This document shows positions 2,930 through 13,850 of a stretch of 64,000 bases of DNA, piece by piece. The translations under genes and the position numbers were made by a program. The stretch lies in the NCBI GenBank assembly GCA_001774495.1, contig MFAE01000014.1, positions 10,573 through 74,572 on the forward strand. The letters run 5' to 3'. The DNA is from Candidatus Campbellbacteria bacterium RIFOXYC2_FULL_35_25. Its GTDB lineage: Bacteria; Patescibacteriota; Minisyncoccia; Phycocordibacterales; UBA12079. Below the pieces are notes generated by a model, which was not told the DNA's origin, searched no databases, and saw nothing but the letters and a program-made list of their open reading frames with translations. Positions within the stretch are counted from its first letter, which is position 1. Each line of letters starts with the position of its first letter.

Positions 2930-3227
2930 GTAGGTTCTATGGAAAGTAAGTTTATTTCCTCGTCCTTATTATGAGAGGAAGTTTTGAAAAAAGATTTCTT
3001 TTGAGAGACTGCACTCTCCTGAATAATTTGCTAAAGTGAGATTTCTCCTTTAAAAAATTTTTACGTTCTTGGCGGGTGAAAGGAAATACTTTTCTTTTTG
3101 TAGGCATAGAACCTCCTCGTAAGTTGAAAGGACCATTATTTTTCTAAATAAACAATAGCAAAGGTATGTTTAGTTTACAAGTTTTTAGGTAGCAAAAGCG
3201 CTAGAATTTTTATCCTTTTTGTATTAT

Positions 3228-3331
3228 AATTGCGAGCGAGGATAAATAAGAATAAATCTAAATTTATTCTTATTATATCCGAGCGAAGGAATTATATGCT
3301 TCGCATATAATTGCGAGCGAGGATAAATAAG
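3228..3331 (+). repeat. Two direct copies of the 25-nt motif ATAATTGCGAGCGAGGATAAATAAG, separated by small hairpins, just upstream of tRNA-Cys
   Basis: Exact 25-mer at 3228-3252 and 3307-3331; related TATAATTGCGAGC at 20744-20756; the CGAGCGAG/CTCGCT motif also occurs near the rplU start. Confidence 0.6.
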
Positions 3332-3347
3332 GGGGAATCGGATAAAA

Positions 3348-3419
3348 GGCGTAGTGGCGAAGTGGTAACGCTGTGGTTTGCAAAACCACCATGCGCCGGT
3401 TCGATTCCGGCCTACGCCT
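3348..3419 (+). tRNA. tRNA-Cys (GCA)
   Basis: Acceptor GGCGTAG/CTACGCC, anticodon loop TTGCAAA, T-arm GCCGGTTCGATTCCGGC, discriminator T. Confidence 0.85.
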
Positions 3420-3436
3420 CAGTTGTTCTTTAAATT

Positions 3437-3518
3437 GCCTAGGTGGCGGAATTGGTATACGCGCACGACTTAAAATCGTGTCTCTCACGGGATGCGGGTT
3501 CGACTCCCGCCCTAGGCA
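3437..3518 (+). tRNA. tRNA-Leu (TAA)
   Basis: Acceptor GCCTAGG/CCTAGGC, anticodon loop CTTAAAA, long variable arm, T-arm GCGGGTTCGACTCCCGC. Confidence 0.85.
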
Positions 3519-3900
3519 CATTAGAAATACTAAATATAATTTATTAAAAATTATATTTAGTATTTCTAATTCGTAAGTTGAGGGAGTCGAACAGAACTTT
3601 TTAAAAGCAAATTTCTTTGCTTTTAAAAAGTCCGAGGCTTCGGAGGAAAAAATTTTGATGTCGTTTCACGACCAAAAATTTTTGGAGGAGAAGGACTCCC
3701 GCCCTAGGCACATTAGAAACATTGAATATATTTTTTGTGGGGTATATTCAATGTTTCTAATCCGTAGGTTGCGGGAGTCGAACAGAACTTTTTAAAAGCA
3801 AATTTTTTTGCTTTTAAAAAGTCCGAGGCTTCGGAGGAAAAAGTTTTCTTTATCGCTTTGCGATTGAAAACTTTTGAGGGAGAAGGACTCCCGCCCTAGG
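3519..3900 (+). repeat. Two tandem ~190-nt structured units (3519-3710 and 3711-3900). Each ends with a direct copy of the tRNA-Leu 3' end (GGACTCCCGCCCTAGG, followed by CA in the first unit).
   Basis: Each unit has a ~50-nt perfect palindrome (cattagaaatactaaatataatttattaaaaattatatttagtatttctaat), then tcgtaag, then gagggagtcgaacagaac (the reverse complement of the Leu T-arm), then small hairpins, then the tRNA 3' copy. Confidence 0.7.
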
Positions 3901-3914
3901 AAAATTAGAAATAT

Positions 3915-3987
3915 CCGTTCGTAGCTCAGTTGGTAGAGCAACCGGCTCTTAACCGGTAGGTCGAAGGTTCGAACCCTTCCGAGCGGA
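3915..3987 (+). tRNA. tRNA-Lys (CTT)
   Basis: Acceptor CCGTTCG/CGAGCGG with one G-U pair, anticodon loop CTCTTAA, T-arm GAAGGTTCGAACCCTTC. Confidence 0.85.
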
Positions 3988-4181
3988 CAAGTGAGCCCTT
4001 TTTGGGCGAGCGCGGAAGTTCGGAGAAAAGCAAACAATTTTGCTTTTCGTAAGGGTTCGAACGACGGAACATGTCGAGCAGAGCGAGACAGTGAGTCGCG
4101 TCCAGTAGTACTTAAATTTTTACGAGCGAAGCGAAGTAAAAAGTTTAGTAACTATGGGACGAACCCTTCCGAGCGGACAAG
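3988..4181 (+). repeat. ~190-nt tRNA-linked element ending with a direct copy of the tRNA-Lys 3' end (GGGACGAACCCTTCCGAGCGGACAAG at 4156-4181)
   Basis: Contains ttcgtaagGGTTCGAACgacggaacatg (reverse complement of the Lys T-arm) and a core related to the Trp- and Ala-linked elements. Confidence 0.65.
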
Positions 4182-4566
4182 CGAGTCTTTATTAGATGAG
4201 CATAAAAAAAGTACAAAAACATTTATAAATTAAAAAATAATAAGTATGTCACAAGATCAATTGATAAAACTAGCATGCCAGGATTGTAAAAGGATTAATT
4301 ACTGGAGCAGGAAAAACAAAAAACTTGTCACCAAAAAGATAGAACTTAAAAAGTTTTGTAAGTGGTGTAAGAAGCAGACTAATCACAAAGAAGTTAAGAA
4401 ATAAACTTAAATTTAGCGCAGGGCTTTGTCGGTTTCAGAAAAATTTGTTTCACCGTATTTGTAATACGTTTCAAAAAATTTTTCCTTACCTCCTCGCCCT
4501 GCATCTAAATTAAAATTTATTTAACGATTTTGTAATTTGGTGATTGAAATTTGTTATTTTAAACAC

Positions 4567-4638
4567 TGGGTCTATAGTTTCAATGGTAAAACATCGGTTT
4601 CCAAAACCGCAGTTCGAGGTTCGAGTCCTCGTGGACCC
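4567..4638 (+). tRNA. tRNA-Trp (CCA)
   Basis: Acceptor GGGTCTA/TGGACCC, anticodon loop TTCCAAA, T-arm CGAGGTTCGAGTCCTCG, discriminator G. Confidence 0.8.
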
Positions 4639-4682
4639 GCAAAATAAAAGCCCCCTAAGGGGGCTTTTATTTTGCGGGTCCA
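4630..4682 (+). terminator. Perfect 25-bp inverted repeat with a 3-nt loop that incorporates the tRNA-Trp 3' acceptor strand; probable intrinsic terminator
   Basis: gtggacccgcaaaataaaagccccc taa gggggcttttattttgcgggtccac. Confidence 0.6.
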
Positions 4683-4692
4683 CAGCAAAGTG

Positions 4693-4870
4693 CCTGCGCA
4701 CTTTGCGTGAGGACTCGAACGGCGGAGACATGTTTTGCAAAGCAAAACAGTCGAGCCGCGTCCAGCGATACTTTGTAAATTTTGAGGTACGAAAAAATTT
4801 ACTTAGTAATCGCGGGACGAGTCCTCGTGAAAGTGCCTGCGCACTTTGCGTGAGGGCTCGAACGGCGGAG
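4693..4870 (+). repeat. tRNA-Trp-linked element. It ends with a direct copy of the T-loop/T-stem (GGGACGAGTCCTCGTG, 4814-4829) and is followed by a second partial copy of its 5' part (4830-4870).
   Basis: aaagtgcctgcgcacttt hairpin, then gcgtgaGGACTCGAACggcggagacatgttttgcaaagcaaaacagtcgagccgcgtccag; the hairpin plus gagggctcgaacggcggag is repeated at 4830-4870. Confidence 0.65.
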
Positions 4871-4940
4871 CAGTTTTGTGAATATAAAAAAGAGGTGTGC
4901 CCATCACGAGCACACCTCCTTGTTCTTAAACCCAGAGCCA

Positions 4941-5504
4941 TTAGTTTGGCCATGCTTCAATCAAAGCTTCGAGAATTCTTGCCATTTCCATACTGCCACC
5001 ACATTGCCCAGTGACGATTGCTTCGTCGACAAACCCATGTTTTTTGAGGTTCTGTAGACTCGGAAATTTATCCTTAAGGCCACAATCGCAAGTTAGCGTC
5101 GCGATGTAAGCATCCGGGAAGTCATCCCTTAAGGACTCGGTAAAATGAGTGGCTTCAGAAAAGCCAGACAGCCCGAGGTAAATCATGAAAAATAGGTTCT
5201 CGTGCAGGACAACTTCTGGATGTTCCCCGAGCAAACATTGTTCTACGTTTTGCTGGCAAATACTGGCCCTCATCTCCATTTGTGAAGGAGATGACCATTC
5301 CGAAACTCGTTCTCTGTGTCCATTTTCCGTTTCGCTCGCCGAGTAAACACTCAAACCTTGTTTCCCCGTGTCCACTTGGCCCCTATAACCCTGAATGCTG
5401 TTATAGGAGGTGAAGACGGCCGATAATTGACTTTTGCCTTTAATAATTTCTGGTATCTTCGCAATAAAATCTTCGGGTTTGATTAGCATCTCGGATTCCT
5501 CCAC
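4941..5504 (-). CDS. Hypothetical protein with visibly higher GC than its neighbours
   Basis: 187-aa ORF containing CDCG and GQCGGS motifs; a hairpin terminator at 4893-4920 lies downstream on the minus strand; no family recognised. Confidence 0.45.
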   Translation of the reverse strand: MEESEMLIKPEDFIAKIPEIIKGKSQLSAVFTSYNSIQGYRGQVDTGKQGLSVYSASETENGHRERVSEWSSPSQMEMRASICQQNVEQCLLGEHPEVVLHENLFFMIYLGLSGFSEATHFTESLRDDFPDAYIATLTCDCGLKDKFPSLQNLKKHGFVDEAIVTGQCGGSMEMARILEALIEAWPN

Positions 5505-5606
5505 AGAGAAGATTAATATAAAAGACTACCTACTCGAAATCTACGGTAAAAGGTACCAGGAAAAAATATTTTTGTCAACAAAAAACCCCTTACGGGGTTC
5601 CTCAAA

Positions 5607-5936
5607 CTAAGACCGGCTTTCCTTAGATATTTCATCAATCCTTTGCCTATTTTTTTCTCCTTTATCTATTTCAAAATCAAAAAAGGGAACTGATTTCATC
5701 TTTAATTTACTCTTTGCAAAACTCTTGAAGTCTTTCCTTTTTCTCTTTACGAAATTTAGCGCCGATTCTTCTCCAGCAGTTGGATAAACTGTTATAAAAA
5801 TTGTAGCACGTTTTAAGTCTTTTGAAACATCCGCGCTTGTAACCGTAATCAAAGAAGTATAGTTAGATTCGTTCTGCAAAAACTGTGCCGCCAAGCTCTT
5901 TAATAATTCTGTTACTTTTTCTTGTCTTTGGGTCAT
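5607..5936 (-). CDS. rbfA: Ribosome-binding factor A
   Basis: 109 aa starting MTQRQEKVTELLKSLAAQFL, a typical RbfA N-terminus; sits upstream of infB in the usual operon order. Confidence 0.8.
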   Translation of the reverse strand: MTQRQEKVTELLKSLAAQFLQNESNYTSLITVTSADVSKDLKRATIFITVYPTAGEESALNFVKRKRKDFKSFAKSKLKMKSVPFFDFEIDKGEKNRQRIDEISKESRS

Positions 5937-6026
5937 AAATTAGTTTTTAGTCTATAGTTTTTAGTTTTTAGATTTGGGAATTAAATTAAATATTAATAAT
6001 TTGTATTCTTATTAGAAATTTATTTT

Positions 6027-13587: not shown

Positions 13588-13593
13588 CACAAC

Positions 13594-13632
13594 CAAAATA
13601 AAACACCATTTTTTTAGATGGTGTTTTATTTT
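13594..13632 (+). terminator. Palindromic rho-independent terminator after tRNA-Ala
   Basis: aaaataaaacaccat ttttttag atggtgttttatttt. Confidence 0.7.
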
Positions 13633-13639
13633 GTGTTGC

Positions 13640-13850
13640 TGTGCCAGAAGAAAGCAAACTGCTTTGCTTTCGTGAGGAATCGAAAGGCGGAATCATGTTT
13701 TGCGAAGCAAAACAGACGAGCCGGGGTCGCGAGCACTTAATAGATTTCGAGCCGAAGACGAAGAAATATATTTAGTGACTCGTGACCGATTCCTCTCTGG
13801 TCCATATTTTTACTTAGAACTGGGGACCGATTCCTCTCTGGTCCACCAAA
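13640..13850 (+). repeat. tRNA-Ala-linked element with two direct copies of the tRNA-Ala 3' end (GACCGATTCCTCTCTGGTCCA at 13784-13804 and 13825-13845)
   Basis: ctttcgtgaGGAATCGAAaggcggaatcatgttttgcgaagcaaaacagacgagccggggtcgcgagcactt; the core is homologous to the Trp-linked element. Confidence 0.65.

Follow-up and report, generated by a model that had tools for sequence, protein, structure and literature searches.

Direct repeats of a tRNA 3' end that begin in the T-loop are the classical mark left when an integrase inserts an element into a tRNA gene. In tRNA-targeting integrative elements, which use tyrosine-integrase att sites, the insert is flanked by a direct repeat of the tRNA segment that starts in the T-loop and reaches the 3' end or further, the functional 3' end comes from the element, repeated events lead to tandem arrays, and the sites are rearrangement hot spots. 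The locus described here, behind a tRNA-Trp gene in a 64-kb stretch of DNA (the window, meaning the whole of the sequence analysed), appears to share these properties. However, its unit is a cassette of 150–200 bp with no integrase or other protein, and it has an extra inverted copy of the tRNA arm, a covarying RNA-like structure and a repeat whose 5' limit depends on the core type.

MITEs, REP/BIME, Correia and RUP repeats and Rickettsia palindromic elements are also short, non-coding, multi-copy, hairpin-rich and intergenic, often lie by terminators and vary among strains. The cassette forms hairpins and is similarly repeated (at four window loci and, beyond the window, with 89 hits over 66 loci). 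MITE/REP-type families have fixed terminal sequences, whereas the arms of the cassette are rewritten for each host tRNA (16 species), and we saw no parent transposon with which it has terminal inverted repeats of constant sequence in common. The cassette also differs in having one defined position relative to tRNA genes and no known parent transposon.

Archaeal non-canonical tRNA introns and split tRNAs and the group I introns of CPR bacteria resemble the cassette in being insertions in a tRNA gene (for the cassette, in the T-loop of a predicted alternative fold) and in carrying exon-complementary sequence, and CPR genomes tolerate many RNA insertions. The group I introns that CPR tRNA genes carry lie in the anticodon loop, at position 35/36 (PMC13011429). 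At our locus, in contrast, a complete, uninterrupted tRNA lies upstream of the unit, no splicing is needed, and there was no Intron_gpI hit. RNA ends that imitate a tRNA acceptor/T-arm helix, beside or co-transcribed with a tRNA, are known from plant viral TLS, transcripts of the Neurospora Mauriceville retroplasmid, mascRNA and plant tRNA-snoRNA dicistrons. The cassette differs in that the T-loop is fully paired and the mimic is an exact copy of the neighbouring tRNA.

Integron attC sites are imperfect palindromes with 5' RYYYAAC ... GTTRRRY 3' boxes, extrahelical bases and an IntI integrase. The arm of the cassette ends in ...CTCGAAC and the distal copy of some cores starts with GTTCGAG, which is like the AAC/GTT boxes of attC, but the fourth base does not fit. 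Tandem structured non-coding units with CPR bacteria among their hosts, and carrying segments that complement either strand of a DNA target, are also seen in TIGR arrays and IS110 bridge RNAs. The guides of IS110 bridge RNAs lie in internal loops, and the recombinase gene is adjacent. TIGR arrays are a source of 36-nt tigRNAs, and genes for Nop-domain Tas proteins lie beside them (PMC12045711). In the cassette, the two arms instead cover one and the same stretch and are paired to each other, and there is no gene of this kind alongside; the units are 150–200 bp long and form a three-way junction, and none of the ten window ORFs searched against Pfam matched a Nop domain.

Anatomy of the tRNA-Trp locus

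The locus comprises the following features.

4568–4639, plus strand: tRNA-Trp (CCA anticodon), without an encoded CCA (ARAGORN; Rfam tRNA model, 58.9 bits)
4631–4683, plus strand: perfect palindrome, 26-nt arms, 100% complementary (repeat search)
4685–4706, plus strand: small hairpin P0, with a 9-bp stem and a CTGC loop, between the anti-acceptor and anti-T segments (sequence, folds)
4707–4720, plus strand: antisense arm, reverse complement of tRNA-Trp positions 53–64 (exact at 4709–4720) and 5' strand of the closing helix P1
4720–4758, plus strand: P2, with base CGGC/GCCG, one bulged G, tandem G·A/A·G and a variable hairpin (covariation; covariance-model hit, 98.5 bits)
4760–4818, plus strand: P3, with GUCC...GGAC closing pairs, an A·G mismatch, a conserved bulged A, a U·U mismatch and an AT-rich apex (pairing and covariation)
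4818–4829, plus strand: distal sense arm, exact copy of tRNA-Trp positions 56–67 (CGAGTCCTCGTG) and 3' strand of P1 (repeat search)
4830–4873, plus strand: truncated second unit, with a P0 copy, antisense arm (GAGGGCTCGAAC), GGCGGAGCAG and a breakpoint (repeats; covariance model, 15.8 bits)
4886–4924, minus strand: terminator-like hairpin of the convergent minus-strand gene (4941–5504), outside the cassette (inverted repeat and terminator scoring)

The palindrome arms (4631–4656 and 4658–4683) are separated by a 1-nt spacer. A first-pass annotation, made from the sequence, had reported a perfect 25-bp inverted repeat at 4630–4682; the repeat is real but slightly larger. As that annotation also held, the tRNA 3' end lies in the left arm, which consists of tRNA-Trp positions 65–73 (GTGGACCCG, with the discriminator at 4639) and 17 nt of trailer. 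The right arm ends in CGGGTCCAC (4675–4683), the antisense of the acceptor 3' strand. At the centre (~4650–4664) is GCCCCC-TAA-GGGGGC, followed by TTTTATTTT, giving the GC-rich stem, short loop and 3' T run of an intrinsic terminator. A terminator had been proposed here, and the inner GC stem with TTTTATTTT could plausibly act as one; a pattern scanner made no call because the stem extends through the T run. It is not a free-standing terminator overlapping the tRNA by chance, however: the palindrome is the junction of the tRNA 3' part with its inverted copy, and such junctions are found again behind roughly half of the tRNAs sampled. In the predicted MFE fold of a transcript of tRNA-Trp plus element, the acceptor/T-arm 3' strand is trapped in the palindrome hairpin, consistent with the earlier suggestion that the acceptor strand may be sequestered in the precursor.

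The 3' part of tRNA-Trp from the T-loop on (4619–4639) is also the first sense arm of the array. The apex of P0 (GTGCCTGCGCAC) is shared with other genomes, with homologues in L020, L036, L057 and L124. The antisense arm terminates in TCGAAC, and its 4709–4720 segment (GAGGACTCGAAC) is the exact 12-nt reverse complement of 4619–4630; the exactness claimed for this T-arm complement holds over these 12 nt, but the 16-mer originally quoted (GCGTGAGGACTCGAAC) matches at only 13 of 16 positions. The same applies to the direct copy, where CGAGTCCTCGTG at 4818–4829 equals 4622–4633 exactly over 12 nt (85% over 20 nt), but the quoted 16-mer does so at 14 of 16. The two copies of CGAGTCCTCGTG are 196 bp apart, start to start, and between them are only mechanical ORFs overlapping the tRNA and palindrome, with no integrase gene and no kilobase-scale cargo. 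The variable hairpin of P2 reads TGTTTTGC-AAA-GCAAAACA.

The distal sense arm is shortened by the start of the next unit, in which 4830–4855 is identical to 4687–4712, GAGGGCTCGAACGGCGGAG lies at 4852–4870, and the copy stops after 4873. The partial second copy of the first-pass annotation is thus borne out, as is its run into the minus-strand terminator, since the hairpin at 4886–4924 scores as one; the overall order, from the palindrome through the small hairpin, inverted T-arm, core and direct T-arm to the partial repeat, was read correctly. The palindrome, arm and second-copy patterns did not occur in 100 dinucleotide shuffles of the window, and the core folds with z = −8.65 relative to shuffles. 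ARAGORN and the Rfam tRNA and tmRNA models made no call over 4641–4925. The earlier caution that this could be an RNA or a DNA-level element was apt.

Occurrence of the cassette in Patescibacteria

The best explanation for the region 4630–4925 is one and a half copies of a ~150–200-bp non-coding cassette that, in Patescibacteria (CPR bacteria), forms variable tandem arrays behind tRNA genes. Each unit opens with a sense copy of host tRNA sequence that starts in the T-loop and stops a few bases beyond the discriminator, followed by a hairpin that is either terminator-like or capped with a GNRA tetraloop. Next come the reverse complement of that tRNA stretch, at times split by a small hairpin, and a conserved two-hairpin core. 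This core is closed into a three-way junction by pairing of the antisense arm with the next unit's sense copy or with the tRNA's original 3' end, now displaced.

The element had been described as a peculiarity of tRNA-Trp. It is instead a repeat family, found also behind tRNA-Leu, -Lys and -Ala in the window and across Patescibacteria. Four of the five tRNAs in the window (Leu, Lys, Trp, Ala) carry units, and in each case the arms fit the unit's own tRNA. The other three loci are as follows.

3520–3900, plus strand: a tandem pair of ~192-bp units after tRNA-Leu, built on the same logic around another core ('type C') (sequence, folds)
3989–4182, plus strand: type A unit behind tRNA-Lys (sequence; covariance-model hit 4041–4176, 93.3 bits)
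13589–13845, plus strand: unit behind tRNA-Ala, with the variant core GAGCCGGGGTCGCGAG...CTCGTGAC (covariance-model hit 13664–13803, 47 bits)

The tRNA-Leu units are 84% alike (blastn), with antisense arms at 3580–3592 and 3772–3783 and sense copies of the tRNA-Leu 3' end at 3694–3710 and 3886–3900. In the tRNA-Lys unit, the antisense arm (4051–4062) is followed by the core, with GGGAC at 4156–4160, and by a sense copy that runs from 4160 past the tRNA end into the trailer. In the tRNA-Ala array, a sense copy at 13787–13804 is followed by a remnant that lacks its 5' part (TTACTTAGAACTGGGGAC) and by another sense copy at 13828–13845, and an orthologous array is present in L047.

A strict core pattern was found in 65 DNA stretches, from MAGs nearly all of which are Patescibacteria. 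A covariance model, R1, gave 89 hits in 66 loci plus 4 in the window, the type C units behind tRNA-Leu being unmatched by it. Of these 93 hits, 52 begin 29–80 nt past a same-strand tRNA, representing 16 tRNA species, and another 16 are later units of arrays; units are also present away from detectable tRNAs. In viral contigs, the type A core pattern had no match, and two matches of a type C motif were discarded as chance hits in GC-rich coding repeats. No recombinase, transposase or reverse transcriptase was linked to the units, and scans of genomes and viral contigs revealed neither an autonomous protein-coding version nor a parent element. An NYN/LabA-like gene lies next to several tRNA-Trp arrays and was considered as a partner; since it does so in just a few of the loci fetched, which are mostly close relatives of one another, it probably reflects local synteny rather than a general partnership. 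Among the ten window ORFs searched with Pfam, eight belong to translation, metabolic or pilin-type families or to DUF4446, and the ORF at 4941–5504, near the tRNA-Trp array, had no Pfam match.

The family is apparently undescribed. An E-value scan of positions 3000–6000 against Rfam 15 returned tRNAs and chance miRNA-like hairpin hits only, and a gathering-threshold scan of 18 loci returned tRNAs only. There was no Rfam 15 match to hammerhead, twister, pistol, hatchet or HDV-like ribozymes, group I or II introns, tmRNA, HEARO or IS605-orfB RNAs, or any other model, and our literature search found no description of such an element.

Host-matched arms and core structure

The arms follow the tRNA beside which they lie. 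Antisense sequence to a tRNA's own positions 53–65 occurs within 160 nt downstream of 54 of 98 tRNAs, compared with 4 of 98 in the upstream control, and a sense copy is found downstream of 49 of 98 (upstream control, 6 of 98). The identity of the sense copy extends from C56 through, mostly, positions 73–77. Its 5' limit varies with core type (G53, T55 or C56), so that there is no single crossover point. Of 14 positions that distinguish the tRNA from the distal copy, the antisense arm complements the tRNA at 13, and its match to the true tRNA is 2 nt longer (AA opposite T54 T55) than its match to the distal copy. P1 contains 43 G·U and 35 A·C pairs, so that its arms seem to have been copied and then to decay, rather than to be selected as RNA. 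Such host-matched arms imply either that a copying mechanism writes its target both ways round or that some function depends on exact complementarity to a tRNA; either would be new biology, and might be of interest for the programmable recognition of nucleic acids. Another idea considered, that tRNAs cleaved in the T-loop are repaired with the antisense arm as template, is disfavoured by the small hairpin inserted in that arm.

Covariation supports a three-way junction for the core, on the tRNA strand. Pairing is found in 90.4% of cells, versus 30–45% in slid controls, and the covariation score was equalled in 0 of 500 shuffles. The base of P2 covaries between CGGC/GCCG and CGAC/GTCG with 100% pairing in 57 sequences. 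In P3, 94.7% of cells are paired and four pairs have changed on both sides, with G·U present and few A·C. P2 and P3 together have 24 G·U versus 6 A·C, which indicates the tRNA strand, and many linker hairpins have GNRA loops on the plus strand. The core recurs, with compensatory base changes, in ~60 genomes. The junction nucleotides (GAA, C, GGGAC) are invariant, an invariance that is built in for TCGAA and most of the core's middle block, as the search pattern itself fixes these. In L012, there is no terminator between the tRNA and the unit, and one follows the sense copy. A minus-strand tRNA or pseudo-tRNA had come into question through a 33-nt stretch with 73% similarity to the anticodon-to-T-arm part of tRNA-Trp; it was rejected, as the same core hairpin lies behind tRNA-Ala (by inspection) and the candidate T-stem is unpaired. 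A hammerhead-like junction was likewise rejected by eye against the hammerhead consensus, as the strand lengths do not fit and there is no CUGANGA.

Turnover at one tRNA and possible origins

The first-pass annotation had proposed looking at metagenome variation at the tRNA-Trp locus. Among 43 metagenome contexts with an identical tRNA-Trp 3' end, 16 have no unit, 8 partial units and 19 full units, and at least six different cores (by inspection) lie behind this one end. A perfect 154-bp tandem array is present in L077. L122, a close relative 98% identical to the window, has 45 nt extra at the distal sense arm, comprising a remnant and a sense copy, and its junction relative to the window falls within a CGAGTCCTC repeat. 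L005 carries the second unit in full, with another P2 (626–761, 46.5 bits), at the point where the window copy is truncated; the two copies in L070 have 100% identical cores with a different hairpin and P0. L091/L115 and L103/L105 have flanks in common and differ by replacement, not simple insertion, and there was no clean pair of an empty and a filled site in which both flanks are conserved. Loss of a unit by repeat recombination is seen, and both the presence of units and their cores turn over at one tRNA. The tRNA 3' ends at these loci are rearrangement breakpoints.

Our preferred reading, to which we give a probability of roughly 45%, is that the cassette is a non-autonomous element that gets into tRNA genes, or multiplies there, at the T-loop/3' part, supplies a new 3' end and hairpin, displaces the old 3' end and encodes a structured read-through RNA. 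We infer that a cassette would enter, or be duplicated, at this part of the gene with its own replacement 3' end and hairpin, because of which the tRNA would stay intact and most tRNA transcripts could still end there; the old 3' end, shifted downstream, would become the direct copy. Arrays would grow, shrink and rearrange through recombination between the repeated sense copies, and cores would be swapped between slots via conserved borders. The core would be made as tRNA-strand RNA by read-through, or, in some loci, with no terminator in between, and its fold would be under selection, most likely as needed by a trans-acting protein or for the cassette's own propagation. Against this reading stand the absence of a linked recombinase, transposase or reverse transcriptase, of an autonomous version and of viral-contig hits, as well as the lack of one crossover point and of a clean empty/filled pair. 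Arms for 16 tRNA species would also require many tRNA-specific lineages, or a re-targeting that writes inverted and direct copies, for which there is no known transposition chemistry.

A host function would be compatible, too, with how strongly the core is conserved across distant CPR classes. The units might be host-serving small RNAs, protein-binding or regulatory, that are co-transcribed from tRNA promoters and released by tRNA-processing enzymes, with arrays varying by duplication and deletion; we regard this as rather doubtful. Release could be pictured because the acceptor-like helix and P1 mimic the acceptor/T-arm stack of the neighbouring tRNA, and RNase Z and CCA addition could act on the closing helix because its 3' strand has the same sequence as the tRNA 3' end up to the discriminator. 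Covariation, the plus-strand G·U bias and loci such as L012, where nothing terminates between tRNA and unit, agree with such RNAs, and the tandem G·A motifs, GNA/GNRA loops, conserved bulge and U·U mismatch suggest a protein-binding surface. However, any helix would serve, and the need for the adjacent tRNA's sequence is left unexplained; P1 has no wobble bias and looks neutral, truncated remnants are common, a terminator-like hairpin precedes the module in many loci, and behind the same tRNA-Trp end some contexts (16 of 43) are unit-free while others carry six unrelated-looking cores. Facultative presence among related organisms also weighs against a cis-acting switch, in which the antisense arm would compete with the tRNA body for the tRNA's 3' strand, read-through transcripts would form a cloverleaf whose 3' half comes from the distal sense copy, and a signal-sensing core would set the amount of tRNA. 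The predicted MFE structure of tRNA plus unit is this alternative fold, 7–20 kcal/mol better than the two folded separately, and the antisense arm favours the true tRNA over the distal copy both in its 2-nt extension and at 13 of the 14 differing positions. But the energy model ignores tertiary contacts, the tRNA folds ahead of transcription of the antisense arm, stacked units and remnants have no role in a switch, and units occur away from detectable tRNAs; we consider the switch quite unlikely.

Leftover DNA of phage or island integration, the direct repeats being attL/attR-type duplications left by tyrosine-integrase elements with functionless sequence between them, would account for repeats that start in the T-loop and for breakpoints at tRNA 3' ends. 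This explanation is highly improbable and largely refuted by covariation. One core recurs in ~60 genomes with compensatory changes, the units are just 150–200 bp without an ORF, the inverted tRNA-arm copy is foreign to any att architecture, and there is no viral-contig hit. An RNA-level mobile unit or new ribozyme, a T-loop intron of sorts with a spare 3' exon, is a long shot. Cleavage at T55/C56 of the tRNA and at A/C56 before the distal copy would yield a unit-length, possibly circular RNA and an intact tRNA, with the 12–20-nt antisense arm as the guide for reinsertion. The predicted MFE fold sets the whole unit in the T-loop of an otherwise normal cloverleaf, the junction nucleotides are invariant (in part fixed by the search pattern), the compact three-way junction with a zero-length P3–P1 joint is reminiscent of small ribozyme cores, and self-splicing introns abound in CPR tRNA genes (PMC13011429). 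Several unrelated cores in one slot would be odd for a catalytic core, however, the guide is broken by a small hairpin in many copies, and no Rfam ribozyme or intron model matched. We think it similarly improbable that the units are a new nucleic-acid-guided mobile element, in which the 12–20-nt arm of the RNA, or of single-stranded DNA, would find the T-arm/acceptor 3' strand of a tRNA, and the three-way-junction core (as a new small ribozyme) or tRNA repair or processing enzymes would cleave and ligate two equivalent junctions to excise the unit and reinsert it at the T-loop; the spare 3' end would make insertion harmless, and the arms would be rewritten by target copying.

If confirmed, the cassettes would represent a widespread, CPR-specific class of genome element and a conserved RNA fold that is new, with no entry in Rfam 15 or the searchable literature. 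In very small genomes, they sit at those genes that are most conserved and fill a visible share of the intergenic DNA (four of five tRNA loci in the 64-kb window). They offer a concrete candidate for how a selfish or regulatory RNA could persist in reduced genomes without harm to essential tRNAs, and their arrays mark rearrangement breakpoints. Several short contigs of the window organism stop inside or next to arrays, which fits assembly breaks at repeats.

Units behind the tRNA genes of the window

The unit behind tRNA-Trp and the tandem array behind tRNA-Leu have the following parts.

Features of the tRNA-Trp and tRNA-Leu loci
3520-3900: two tandem ~192-bp units behind tRNA-Leu, with a different core; the tRNA-Leu 3' end occurs three times
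4568-4639, + strand: tRNA-Trp (CCA), CCA not encoded
4631-4656 and 4658-4683: inverted repeat, arms of 26 nt each, 100% complementary, 1-nt gap
4685-4706: hairpin with a 9-bp stem and CTGC loop, directly after the inverted repeat
4709-4720: antisense arm GAGGACTCGAAC, exact reverse complement of 4619-4630 (tRNA-Trp positions 53-64)
4818-4829: distal sense arm CGAGTCCTCGTG, after the core, identical to 4622-4633
From 4830, ending after 4873: truncated second unit, in which the hairpin, inverted arm and GGCGGAG recur
4886-4924: terminator-like hairpin belonging to the convergent gene

The left arm of the inverted repeat adds 17 nt of trailer to tRNA-Trp positions 65-73, and the centre reads GCCCCC-TAA-GGGGGC, followed by TTTTATTTT. 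The first-pass annotation had placed here a perfect 25-bp palindrome overlapping the tRNA 3' end, which is present with 26-nt arms, and a partial second copy running into the terminator of the minus-strand gene, which is likewise found. Its 'exact' 16-nt copies of the T-arm are exact over 12 nt, and across their full length match at only 13/16 and 14/16. The motifs of the tRNA-Trp locus were all absent from shuffled versions of the window. What had been taken for a peculiarity of tRNA-Trp turned out to be a family, as the same layout is found at the tRNA-Lys, -Ala and -Leu genes of the window.

Behind tRNA-Lys, the antisense arm AAGGGTTCGAAC is followed by a related core, GGGAC, and then the tRNA-Lys 3' end with its trailer. 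The tRNA-Ala unit has GAGGAATCGAA, a variant core and the tRNA-Ala 3' end twice. The tRNA-Leu core (GTCCGAGGCTTCGGAGG and AT-rich hairpins) is unrelated in sequence to this Trp/Lys/Ala type (type A) and shares the logic of antisense and sense arms; matches to its motif were confined to the window organism's own contigs. In each unit of the window the arms agree with the unit's own host tRNA, and all of these units are predicted to fold as a three-way junction closed by the two arms. The tRNA-Cys gene has no unit because tRNA-Leu comes immediately after it.

Upstream of tRNA-Cys lies an exact 26-nt direct repeat, ataattgcgagcgaggataaataag (3226-3250 and 3307-3331), and between its copies are GAGCGAAG/GAGCGAGG-type hairpin motifs resembling the apex of core helix P3. 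All five tRNA genes of the window lack an encoded CCA and carry CA right after the discriminator (3420, 3519, 3988, 4640, 13588), as seen also in many of the fetched CPR loci; this CA may be an incomplete CCA or serve as a signal for processing. Directly upstream of tRNA-Ala, the segment 12001-14000 has a GC content of 0.45, vs. about 0.27-0.37 over most of the window, and contains long open stretches.

Core structure, distribution and tie to host tRNAs

A structural alignment was made from 57 non-identical cores. P1 is formed by the paired antisense and sense arms, and the junction J by two unpaired A. P2 has a CGGC/GCCG base, a single bulged G, tandem G.A/A.G and a variable hairpin on top. 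One C separates it from P3 (GUCC-A-GCAGU-ACUUA ... UUAGU-A-ACUGC-G-GGAC), which has a bulged A, a U.U mismatch and the apex UGA-GC-GNA-GC-GAA. The alignment is 90.4% paired, vs. 30-45% when partners are slid by 1-3 columns, and the observed covariation score was reached by none of 500 shuffles. The search pattern had fixed part of the core's 5' and middle sequence but none of the covarying pairs (24-78, 29-74, 30-73, 88-147, 89-146, 90-145 and 92-142). The window core folds with a z of -8.65; the opposite strand folds nearly as well, as expected of any helix set, so the strandedness of the core rests on wobble counts. P2 and P3 together hold 24 G.U vs. 6 A.C pairs, which identifies the tRNA strand as the one that folds; in many loci, linker hairpins with GNRA caps likewise indicate the + strand. 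P1, with 43 G.U vs. 35 A.C pairs, looks like the product of neutral decay from originally perfect copies.

Scanning 185,579 species genomes for TCGAAMGRCGGA-N(20-50)-GAGYCGCGTCCAG returned 65 stretches of DNA. Their sources are all Patescibacteria (Saccharibacteria, Paceibacteria/Parcubacteria, Kaiser-, Campbell-, Nomura-, Woese- and Yonathbacteria, Minisyncoccia, Elulimicrobium), except for two contigs from a MAG labelled Flavobacteriaceae; of these, at least L008 (labelled Patiriisocius) looks like a mis-binned CPR contig. The pattern had no match among 2.9 million viral contigs. Sequence identical to that of the window organism occurs in several ENA/JGI metagenomes. A covariance model of the core scored 98.5 bits for the first Trp unit, 93.3 for Lys, 47.0 for Ala and 15.8 for the truncated second Trp unit, and found 89 copies in 66 loci.

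Most model matches (52/93) begin 29-80 nt past the 3' end of a same-strand tRNA, representing 16 tRNA species; a further 16 stand second or later in an array, and the remainder lie at contig ends or after decayed tRNA-like ends. We also scored the tRNAs of the fetched loci independently of any core. An antisense copy of the tRNA's own positions 53-65 (≤2 mismatches) was found ≤160 nt downstream of 54/98 tRNAs (upstream control, 4), and a sense copy of positions 56-65 downstream of 49/98 (upstream control, 6); the fractions are biased upward because the loci were selected for having a unit, while the upstream/downstream asymmetry is unbiased. The sense copy extends from C56 to mostly positions 73-77. 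The tRNA and the distal copy disagree at 14 positions, and at 13 of these the antisense arm complements the tRNA. In L008, several units occupy a 2-kb stretch behind a tRNA-Trp whose CCA is encoded, and there arm complementarity is restricted to CCCG-CCA-trailer.

Units with no adjacent detectable tRNA occur in L008 (640-2700, minus strand), L033, L064, L070 and L069. They start with a conserved, decayed T-loop-like end (AG|TTCTAAC...CGCCCA), and both their arms, antisense and distal sense, retain a match to a canonical His-like tRNA, as though entire units might have been copied elsewhere along with the tRNA 3' part.

Turnover at tRNA ends and its interpretation

Population variation at tRNA-Trp, a check proposed in the first-pass annotation, was examined by scanning metagenome contigs for the 22-nt tRNA-Trp 3' end, which gave 59 loci in 43 non-redundant contexts. 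These vary from no unit to full units: 16/43 have a plain trailer or terminator only, 8/43 partial units and 19/43 one or two full units. In two loci with no unit (L075, L097), ~30 nt of tRNA body upstream of the match are identical to the window's. By inspection of the sequences, no fewer than six different cores occur in the slot behind this one tRNA-Trp end, always between the same antisense and sense arms, and the start of sense identity (G53, T55 or C56) depends on the core. One locus (L077) is built of perfect tandem repeats with a period of 154, and another (L070) has two copies with identical cores and different linker hairpins. At the place of the window's truncation, L005 continues into a full second Trp unit whose P2 differs. 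L122, at 98% identity to the window, has an extra 45 nt separating the first and second units, consisting of what is left of a different core, truncated at its 5' end, and a sense copy; the window junction falls within the CGAGTCCTC repeat, and a unit was therefore lost via recombination between sense copies. In a Campbellbacteria genome, the orthologous array behind tRNA-Ala exceeds the window's by one unit and shares its truncated remnant. Contigs identical in the tRNA and the DNA upstream of it can differ entirely downstream (L091, L115). Related contigs that share the window's tRNA-Trp likewise have nothing in common past it, so a synteny breakpoint falls at the cassette array.

In the tRNA-Glu array of L049 (256-880, minus strand), type A cores alternate with a second family, type B, which has a long hairpin (AGGTTGT...ACAACCT) and a short GUAA-capped one; L059 (720-810) holds a related piece in reversed orientation.

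A facultative cassette that gets into tRNA 3' ends or multiplies there is favoured by the high turnover at a single tRNA, the way different cores are stacked, the remnants and breakpoints, and the neutral look of the arms; the same observations argue against a device required for tRNA production. We put somewhat below even odds (about 0.45) on a non-autonomous cassette whose structured RNA would be required in its own propagation or bound by a trans-acting factor. The main weakness of this reading is mechanism: it has no known enzyme, and we know of no process that would copy a new target in both the inverted and the direct orientation. Elements integrating into tRNA genes are alike in layout, with a sense tRNA 3' copy opening every unit and a displaced copy after the last, the gene being restored. 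However, the present units are small, lack any gene, and add an inverted arm and a covarying core, and we regard mere integration scars as very improbable.

The folded core could instead belong to small RNAs that serve the host and are freed by tRNA-processing enzymes, which seems unlikely to us, if worth serious attention. A cis switch acting on tRNA maturation, against which the turnover speaks, is a distinctly poorer prospect. When tRNA and unit are folded together, the predicted MFE structure differs from that of a tRNA followed by a unit: the antisense arm captures the T-arm/acceptor 3' strand, lengthening the palindrome, and the distal sense copy pairs with the tRNA 5' strands. The resulting cloverleaf, with the entire unit within its T-loop, lies 7-20 kcal/mol below the separate folds in an energy model that leaves out co-transcriptional order, tertiary contacts and hairpin termination. 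This prediction supports the earlier suggestion that the palindrome could sequester the acceptor strand. An RNA-level mobile unit or a new ribozyme seems about as doubtful as the switch.

The units match no Rfam 15 family, and a full-text literature search of incomplete coverage found no description of them. The closest items published for CPR bacteria, group I introns at anticodon position 35/36 of tRNAs (PMC13011429) and TIGR arrays (PMC12045711), are both distinct from the units. We rate the units as outside known kinds, and as less new should they turn out to be copies of a small RNA gene made by ordinary repeat-mediated duplication.

Neighbourhood of the arrays and assembly breaks

In many bacteria rpmG-tRNA-Trp is followed by secE-nusG; in the window (4246-5936) a convergent block follows instead, with an ORF without Pfam match, rbfA and infB. 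Next to tRNA-Trp arrays in L008 (995-1510) and in related contigs (L131, L082, L108, L115, L094) lies a 171-aa gene that its sequence suggests is NYN/LabA-like; local synteny is the probable reason. Several short contigs of the window organism (L004, L006, L007) stop inside the arrays of tRNA-Leu, -Lys and -Trp or next to them, and after position 657 of L005 a different continuation begins inside a unit; the cassettes may thus fragment or chimerise assemblies.
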